NCBI RefSeq assembly: GCF_003334405.1
Contig: NZ_QOWM01000003.1
DNA length: 64,000 nt
Source: Escherichia coli
GTDB lineage: Bacteria > Pseudomonadota > Gammaproteobacteria > Enterobacterales > Enterobacteriaceae
Direction: 5' to 3' (one strand)
The position numbers and the translations under genes are program-made. This document shows positions 19,745 to 58,163 of this stretch, one piece after another. Within the stretch, counting starts at the first letter, position 1. The number at the start of each line of letters is the position of its first letter. The notes beneath the pieces were generated by a model. It did no database searches. It was not told the DNA's origin and saw only the letters and a list, made by a program, of their open reading frames with translations.

Positions 19745-23100
<3,356 letters not shown>

Positions 23101-55098: not shown

Positions 55099-55132
55099 TG
55101 AGGCCTGCTAAACAGCAAAACGGAGACGCGTG

Positions 55133-55654
55133 ATGGCTATTATTCTCGGCATTGATCCGGGTTCGCGCGTGACCGGCTACGGCGTCATCCGCCAGGTAGG
55201 TAGGCAACTGTCCTACCTGGGTAGCGGATGCATCCGCACCAAAGTGGATGATTTACCGTCTCGTCTGAAACTCATCTATGCGGGCGTGACGGAAATCATC
55301 ACCCAGTTCCAGCCTGATTATTTCGCCATTGAACAAGTCTTTATGGCAAAGAACGCTGACTCAGCCCTGAAACTGGGCCAGGCGCGCGGCGTGGCGATTG
55401 TGGCGGCGGTGAATCAGGAGTTGCCAGTATTTGAATACGCGGCACGTCAGGTAAAGCAAACGGTGGTAGGTATTGGCAGTGCCGAAAAAAGCCAGGTGCA
55501 GCATATGGTCCGCACCTTGCTGAAACTGCCCGCTAATCCACAGGCGGATGCCGCCGATGCGCTGGCGATTGCTATCACCCACTGCCACGTTAGTCAGAAT
55601 GCGATGCAGATGAGCGAATCGCGGCTGAACCTGGCGAGAGGGCGACTGCGTTAA
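55133..55654 (+). CDS. ruvC: Holliday junction resolvase RuvC (173 aa)
   Basis: Translation [21 protein letters not shown]...; the track ORF starts one codon upstream at a GTG. Confidence 0.93.
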
Positions 55655-55655
55655 G

Positions 55656-56258
55656 TTATACCGCCTCGGTCAGTTCCGGCTGAGGCGTTTCCACTCCCTC
55701 CGCATGAATCAACACCAAACCCGGATGATGCCACAAACTGGCTGGCGTGACGGTTTTACGCTCCCACGGAATAGAACCCAGGAACCAGAATTTCCAGAAA
55801 GTGAGTTTTGCATTCGGATTGCTATTTAACAATTCTCCAAACGTCTCTATTTCACCCACCGGAATACATAGCGCTTCTTTATAAATATCAAAAACAAATT
55901 TTGAACAGAACTGGCGCGAAGATTCGTATTTAAAACCGGTGTGGTAAAGTTTGCGTAGCCGGGAGGGAACCTGTTCAACAATTCGTTGTTTTTGTCGTTC
56001 TGTCAGCCCAGCGTCTAATCGCTTTATAGCATAGCGTTGATTAGACGAACGTTTAATAAAACGAGATAGCGTGGTGATGGTTGAAAGGGGAACCCGGCTT
56101 TCTGCAACCAGGAAGTCTTCACCGTTATGACCGATAATGATCCCGACGTGATTACTCCAGCAATTTGATGCAGCTGATATTTGACCAAATAAGGCAGCAC
56201 CTATACATGTAAAGACGATATCTCCAATTTCATATTCAGCAGGGTAATTAATATTCAC
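55656..56258 (-). CDS. yebB: DUF830 protein YebB (200 aa from a GTG start; longer 233-aa frame possible)
   Basis: Recognised N-terminus (M)[24 protein letters not shown]; AT-rich gene; the track ORF extends to 56357. Confidence 0.8.
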
Positions 56259-56412
56259 GTTGTCATTCCATTGAAATAGATACAAATATACGTAATAGCA
56301 TAAAAAATTTATTTTTTCAGGAGGCGCAATGTATATTTTTATTACGCATTTCTTCACTGAATATGTAATATTAAAATATTTGCTTCCAATATAACCTGTA
56401 GAATAAATTATA

Positions 56413-56428
56413 CTGTGCCATTTTTCAG
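56413..56428. promoter_or_regulatory. LexA (SOS) box 2 of the ruvAB promoter
   Basis: CTGT-N8-TCAG, fitting the CTG-N10-CAG core. Confidence 0.5.
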
Positions 56429-56465
56429 TTCATCGAGACACCTCGCAAGTTTTCTTCATCCTTCG

Positions 56466-56481
56466 CTGGATATCTATCCAG
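56466..56481. promoter_or_regulatory. LexA (SOS) box 1 of the ruvAB promoter
   Basis: CTGGATATCTATCCAG palindrome (CTG-N10-CAG), about 50 nt upstream of the ruvA start. Confidence 0.6.
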
Positions 56482-56532
56482 CATTTTTTTATCATACAGC
56501 ATTATCTTTGATTCATTACGCAGGAGCGTCAT

Positions 56533-57144
56533 GTGATAGGCAGACTCAGAGGCATCATCATTGAAAAACAACCCCCGCTGGTGTTAATTGAAGTGGGCGG
56601 CGTAGGCTATGAAGTGCATATGCCGATGACCTGTTTTTATGAACTCCCTGAAGCGGGTCAGGAAGCGATCGTTTTCACCCACTTTGTGGTGCGTGAAGAC
56701 GCGCAACTGCTGTACGGTTTTAACAATAAACAAGAGCGCACATTGTTCAAAGAGTTGATCAAAACCAACGGCGTCGGCCCGAAGTTGGCGCTGGCGATCC
56801 TCTCCGGAATGTCAGCGCAGCAGTTCGTTAATGCCGTTGAGCGTGAAGAAGTGGGGGCACTGGTGAAACTGCCGGGTATTGGCAAAAAAACCGCCGAACG
56901 CTTGATTGTTGAAATGAAAGACCGATTTAAAGGTTTGCATGGCGATCTCTTTACGCCAGCCGCCGACCTGGTACTCACGTCTCCTGCCAGCCCGGCGACC
57001 GACGATGCTGAACAAGAAGCGGTTGCCGCGCTGGTGGCGCTGGGCTATAAACCACAAGAAGCAAGCCGCATGGTGAGCAAAATCGCTCGCCCTGACGCCA
57101 GCAGTGAAACTTTAATTCGCGAAGCCCTACGCGCCGCGTTATGA
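56533..57144 (+). CDS. ruvA: Holliday junction branch-migration protein RuvA (203 aa, GTG start)
   Basis: Translation [32 protein letters not shown]... matches RuvA; RBS AGGAG. Confidence 0.95.
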
Positions 57145-57149
57145 GGTAA

Positions 57150-58163
<1,014 letters not shown>

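Follow-up and report, generated by a model that had tools for sequence, protein, structure and literature searches.

The SOS box of the ruvAB operon in Escherichia coli K-12 was reportedly described in 1988 together with the ruv operon, and Lewis et al. are said to have assigned it, in 1994, a heterology index (HI) of 9.19. The same 20-mer, CGCTGGATATCTATCCAGCA, lies at 56464-56483 on the plus strand of the DNA analyzed here, a 64-kb stretch of E. coli sequence that we call the window. It has the same HI and the same place before ruvA, with no difference from the K-12 box; this proximal site is the textbook K-12 ruvAB SOS box, the same element. A second CTG-N10-CAG string further upstream had led a sequence-only reading to propose two LexA boxes ahead of ruvAB, and of these the proximal one stands and the distal one does not. 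Our preferred reading, to which we give a probability of about 90%, is that the single LexA operator at 56464-56483 controls ruvAB and that the distal CTG-N10-CAG is a non-functional look-alike. That one operator precedes ruvAB, not two, is already known, both facts being in the literature. The distinction has little significance past annotation hygiene, the look-alike having already appeared in a published table as non-binding.

Some LexA-controlled promoters do have several operators, including lexA (two boxes), recN (three), and colicin genes, and the region before ruvAB likewise has more than one core. In the known promoters of this kind, the sites are closely spaced. In addition, every box in them is binding-competent by HI, and the lexA and recN boxes score 6.4-9.4 in the compiled table. 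The distal core before ruvAB is unlike these, with an HI of 15.56, a listing as non-binding, a position 53 bp off, and no conservation. By HI, it is a member of the sub-threshold population of K-12 CTG-N10-CAG sequences (PSOSP Table S1). However, unlike that high-HI population, it adjoins a real operator, which would be why earlier workers noticed and tested this sequence.

The reference for HI was the PSOSP supplement (PMC12527982), which gives values for 368 E. coli K-12 20-mers. We recovered the HI matrix by fitting a symmetric additive model to 140 of the 20-mers in PSOSP Table S1, reproducing every value within 6e-5. The fitted weights equal ln((n_cons+0.5)/(n_obs+0.5)) exactly, with integer counts from 38 half-sites, i.e., 19 operators, and the recovered matrix is the published HI matrix, valid for CTG-N10-CAG sites. 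Binding status here comes from a secondary table that cites Lewis 1994, namely PSOSP Table S3 (PMC12527982), which was compiled from Lewis et al. 1994 and holds 24 experimentally tested sequences; all 19 of the listed binders have an HI of at most 12.6. In PSOSP, the Mean-Shift boundary of the binding class falls between HI 13.60 and 13.95, and dozens of K-12 sequences in Table S1 score from 13.9 to 16 (PMC12527982).

A bare match to CTG-N10-CAG turns up roughly every 2.5 kb in E. coli and is uninformative alone. The window contains 26 such cores, compared with 13.2 expected from dinucleotide shuffles. Long open frames contain 23 of the 26, and the excess may be an effect of coding sequence, given how common CTG and CAG are as codons. 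The second-best core in the window, in TGCTGGGTTTCCAGACAGAA at 22220-22239 (core 22222-22237), has an HI of 13.55, near the published binding threshold, but it is internal to an open reading frame of 477 codons (21667-23100), with no promoter there. The methodological lesson from the ruvAB upstream region is that HI and phylogenetic footprinting together cleanly part a real operator from a look-alike.

A LexA operator and a probable look-alike upstream of ruvA

Compared with complete E. coli genomes, the region was matched in 5,426 of 5,426, and K-12-type strains are 100% identical to the window. In E. coli, ruvC (55130-55654, plus strand) is cut off from ruvA by yebB (55656-56258, minus strand) and then yobI (56330-56395, plus strand), a 21-codon gene for a 21-aa small stress-response protein according to the RefSeq annotation of identical E. 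coli sequence. ruvC and yebB are convergent, and their stop codons (55654 and 55656) are 1 nt apart. The LexA-controlled ruvAB operon follows on the plus strand, with ruvA (56533-57144, GTG start at 56533) as gene 1 and ruvB (57153-58163) as gene 2. Sequence inspection places the Shine-Dalgarno sequence of ruvA, AGGAG, at 56522-56526 (plus strand), where a GGAGC block is invariant in the cross-genus alignment. An Rfam scan of 56200-56600 returned nothing beyond a chance-level snoRNA match (E = 0.64).

Two exact CTG-N10-CAG strings do lie upstream of the ruvA GTG, as the sequence-only reading had stated. The proximal core, CTGGATATCTATCCAG (56466-56481, read on the plus strand), sits within a 20-bp near-palindrome. 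With the recovered matrix, CGCTGGATATCTATCCAGCA has an HI of 9.19 (half-sites 4.78 + 4.41), which equals the published value, is the lowest among the 26 cores in the window, and is inside the range of validated binders. Random cores score this low in 0.16% of cases at the composition of the window and in 1.6% at the local AT-rich composition. The 20-mer is also marked as LexA-binding, at HI 9.19, in PSOSP Table S3 (PMC12527982). This value is that of a medium-to-weak operator, which fits substantial basal expression and a small induction.

The distal look-alike, TACTGTGCCATTTTTCAGTT (56411-56430), lies 18 nt past the yobI stop codon and contains the core CTGTGCCATTTTTCAG (56413-56428, read on the plus strand). 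Its HI of 15.56 comes from two poor half-sites (8.45 + 7.11), exceeds the validated-binder maximum of 12.6, and belongs to the Mean-Shift non-binding class of PSOSP; random cores score 15.56 or lower in 8% of cases at window composition and in 27.5% at local composition. PSOSP Table S3 (PMC12527982) marks the same 20-mer as experimentally not binding LexA, with an HI of 15.5, and as the lowest-HI non-binder in that table it helps place the threshold. The sequence-only reading had named the functional HI threshold as the measure of its own proposal, and by that measure the proximal site passes while the distal site fails.

It is tempting to keep the distal site as a weak auxiliary box, functional alongside the proximal one, which would bind LexA cooperatively with it and tighten ruvAB repression in strains that have the window allele. 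Each site has a perfect CTG-N10-CAG core, and the outer part of the left distal half-site, TACTGT, is an exact match to consensus. The centers of the two sites are 53 bp apart, or ~5.05 helical turns, which places them on the same DNA face and would allow cooperative binding if LexA does so at that distance. In addition, chance would rarely place a second core in the 274-bp spacer (~0.017, or ~0.005 with an HI of at most 15.56), so the pairing of cores stands out slightly, whereas the distal site is unremarkable in quality. Its score above all validated binders, its listing as non-binding, and its poor half-sites all speak against a second operator, as does the close spacing of sites in known multi-operator LexA promoters; the distribution of the site among genomes, described below, weighs further against it. 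A scan of the yebB-ruvA spacer found no further sites with one or no core mismatch.

The sequence-only reading had excluded ruvC from SOS induction. The only cores nearest yebC-ruvC have HI values of 23.2, 23.9, and 26.8, which agrees with the proposed lack of an SOS box at ruvC. ruvC has no plausible LexA box, and the sequence is in keeping with an absence of SOS control there.

The predicted ruvA promoter and ruvAB expression

A consensus scan predicts a sigma-70-type ruvA promoter at 56467-56495 on the plus strand, with a -35 hexamer TGGATA (56467-56472), a 17-nt spacer, and a -10 hexamer TATCAT (56490-56495), matching 9 of 12 consensus positions. This is the only sigma-70-like promoter call in 56150-56650. 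The proximal operator covers the predicted -35 hexamer and the greater part of the spacer. The scan finds the same arrangement in Salmonella (TGGATA-17-TATGAT), and a -10-like hexamer, TATGAT, TATTAT, or TATCAT, is present in 73 of the 78 enterobacterial loci described below. The distal 20-mer ends at 56430, 36 nt upstream of the predicted -35 hexamer, and neither overlaps nor abuts the promoter.

These positions suggest how the single operator may work. A LexA dimer binds the proximal 20-bp site, as shown in the literature, and because that site overlaps the -35 and most of the spacer, bound LexA would probably block RNA polymerase at the ruvA promoter, which the conservation of the site also suggests. 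Upon DNA damage, RecA filaments would lead to LexA self-cleavage and relieve the block, following the established SOS pathway, and ruvAB would then rise modestly, by ~2-3 fold according to the literature. The distal sequence very probably plays no regulatory part; it would be a look-alike, arisen by chance or by decay, in the AT-rich stretch after yobI that is specific to Escherichia.

Published expression and binding data agree with one operator whose strength is moderate to weak. In published RNA-seq of K-12, AZT induced ruvA 2.0-fold and ruvB 2.8-fold. LexA-cleavage dependence in the same data was 1.9-fold for ruvA and 2.6-fold for ruvB, with ruvC not mentioned. The expectation that a LexA operator precedes ruvAB is borne out by the HI and listing of the proximal site, by its presence in 78 of 78 loci, by this published LexA-dependent induction, and by the UV induction of a ruvA promoter reporter.

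The literature also hints at a second, non-sigma-70, possibly sigma-S input to ruvA within 56258-56532. A ruvA promoter reporter responded to UV with a biphasic time course, for which the authors considered a possible alternative sigma factor (Culyba 2018), and genomic SELEX placed a peak of RpoS holoenzyme between ruvA and yebB (Shimada 2017).

Conservation across genera and within E. coli

A RuvA scan gave 80 loci from Escherichia, Citrobacter, Salmonella, Klebsiella, Enterobacter, Kluyvera, Kosakonia, and others, 78 of them with enough upstream sequence. The proximal palindrome, CTGGAT-N4-ATCCAG, is present in all 78 evaluable Enterobacteriaceae loci, with HI values of 8.2-11.9. The distance from the first base of its 20-mer to the ruvA start is 67-72 nt in 76 loci and 195 nt in the other two. 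The latter loci (L040 and L077, from Pseudenterobacter timonensis and Enterobacter sp. RIT418) keep both the box and the T7 run that follows it, and the distance of 195 instead of ~70 nt points to a ~125-nt insertion in the 5' leader. In the alignment, conservation starts abruptly at the 5' edge of the proximal box and extends through the T7 run and the -10, while the sequence upstream is lineage-specific.

The distal core is broken or absent in sister Escherichia lineages and in other genera, which retain ruvA, the promoter, and the proximal box. It is absent from every non-Escherichia locus among the evaluable Enterobacteriaceae loci, and the only core at the distal position outside E. coli is in another Escherichia locus (L002), where the HI is 23.5. 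The L010 core is broken (CTG to CAA), in E. albertii the whole segment differs, and strain R32_14_1F likewise has no intact core.

In E. coli, 4,837 genomes have at least 99% identity over the 70 nt that contain the proximal box, versus 1,597 over the 70 nt that contain the distal box. The window allele of the distal site is exact in 1,602 of 5,426 complete genomes (∼30%). The commonest alternative, TACTGCGCCATTTTTCAGAT (HI 22.46), occurs in at least 1,159 genomes, plus ~500 with a different flank, and the allele TACTGTGCCATTTTTCAGAT (HI 18.35) is rare; alleles were counted by 34-mers, which leaves ~2,100 genomes unassigned because flanking mismatches break the 28-nt word, so the alternative-allele frequencies are lower bounds. 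In 14 E. coli loci that we read, the distal box changes from T to C at position 6 (56416), the heaviest-weighted variable HI position, and from T to A at position 19 (56429). The proximal box is unchanged in the same loci, and from ~6 nt upstream of its 20-mer to ruvA, one base differs, in one locus (L088). The outgroups disagree at distal positions 6 and 19, L002 having C/A and L010 having T/T with its broken core, which leaves the ancestral distal allele ambiguous. Recombination between lineages is possible at this dimorphic box.

We see no sign in these sequences of selection to keep the distal site. An auxiliary box would be carried, as a binding candidate, by under a third of E. coli genomes and replaced in many others by an allele with an HI of 22.46. 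Taken with its score and its listed failure to bind, this makes a second functional box before ruvAB very unlikely.

The proximal palindrome as a candidate terminator

Intrinsic terminators that overlap a downstream promoter offer another comparison for the proximal site, which shares with them a G+C-containing stem, a 4-nt loop, a U7 tract, and, in 50 of 78 loci, placement after the ruvC stop. Unlike those terminators, the E. coli element has a short stem (7 bp), and the E. coli ruvC 3' end lies elsewhere; termination is a candidate role here. A terminator scan calls the proximal palindrome as a hairpin (stem 56465-56471 / 56476-56482, loop ATCT) followed by T7 (56484-56490), spanning 56465-56490 on the plus strand. 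The predicted RNA fold is -10.6 kcal/mol (z = -4.45) in E. coli and -16.1 kcal/mol for the Salmonella equivalent, which the scan likewise calls as a terminator. A terminator-like palindrome with a T7 run is also seen at 1428-1458 of locus L046. The distal core was considered as an RNA hairpin as well and rejected (-1.5 kcal/mol, z = -0.24).

The setting of the hairpin across genera is also suggestive. T7 directly follows the box in 71 of the 78 loci. In 50 of the 78, the ruvC stop codon precedes the 20-mer by at most 15 nt (usually 10), with an A-rich tract ahead of the box; in E. coli, the box is instead 68 nt past the yobI stop codon. All but one of those 50 ruvC-adjoining loci (49) carry GG..CC flanks; with these the stem reaches 8 bp, at the price of a poorer HI (11.5 versus 9.19). 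This arrangement suggests that the element may also end ruvC transcription, insulating ruvAB from ruvC.

Transcript ends have been mapped in K-12 by Term-seq. The primary ruvC 3' end is ~48 nt past the stop codon, antisense to yebB, and a bicyclomycin-sensitive (Rho-dependent) 3' end is found further in (window 55643-55702). The supplements of the K-12 Term-seq work contain no 3' end at yobI or ruvA, yobI perhaps being too weakly expressed, and the literature searched contained no description of termination at the ruvAB box. The positions of the hairpin stem are invariant, and changes in the flanks break pairs without compensation; with an invariant stem, covariation is uninformative about the proximal hairpin.

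Could the palindrome be kept mainly as an RNA terminator, for ruvC in most genera and for yobI in E. coli, with the LexA box secondary or incidental? We rate this the least probable of the readings: the terminator-like scans, stable folds, T7 runs, nearby ruvC stops, and stem-lengthening flanks that favor it have to be set against an invariant stem that yields no covariation evidence and Term-seq tables with no 3' end at yobI or ruvA, and in its exclusive form it clashes with the listed LexA binding of CGCTGGATATCTATCCAGCA and with the LexA-dependent induction of ruvAB. Good LexA boxes are always palindromic, so the stem alone cannot tell a terminator role from an operator role. The two functions are compatible, and termination is therefore more likely a role added to the LexA operator than a rival to it.

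The proximal SOS box could be a three-in-one element, serving as LexA operator, as ruvA -35 region, and, in RNA form, as an intrinsic terminator of the upstream gene (ruvC in most Enterobacteriaceae, yobI in E. coli) that insulates SOS-controlled ruvAB from constitutive ruvC, a proposal for which we see evenly balanced odds. If it is true, the GG..CC flanks would be retained for stem strength at the expense of LexA affinity, and insertions would have joined repeatedly at the 5' edge of the box. The overlap of operator, promoter, and ruvC terminator would then explain how the adjacent ruvC and ruvAB are separately controlled in most enterobacteria.

The upstream segment always joins the conserved sequence at the 5' edge of the box or only a few bases from it, a pattern suggestive of a place where insertion or recombination has recurred. 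In strain R32_14_1F, the whole upstream segment has been swapped for other genes up to ~6 nt before the proximal box. More broadly, the interval from ruvC to the SOS box (window 55656-56463; L088 1-1500; L020, L025, and L058 upstream of their boxes) is variable, containing yebB and yobI in Escherichia and two other hypothetical genes in R32_14_1F. In several genera this interval has still other inserts, 459-1,209 nt long or longer.
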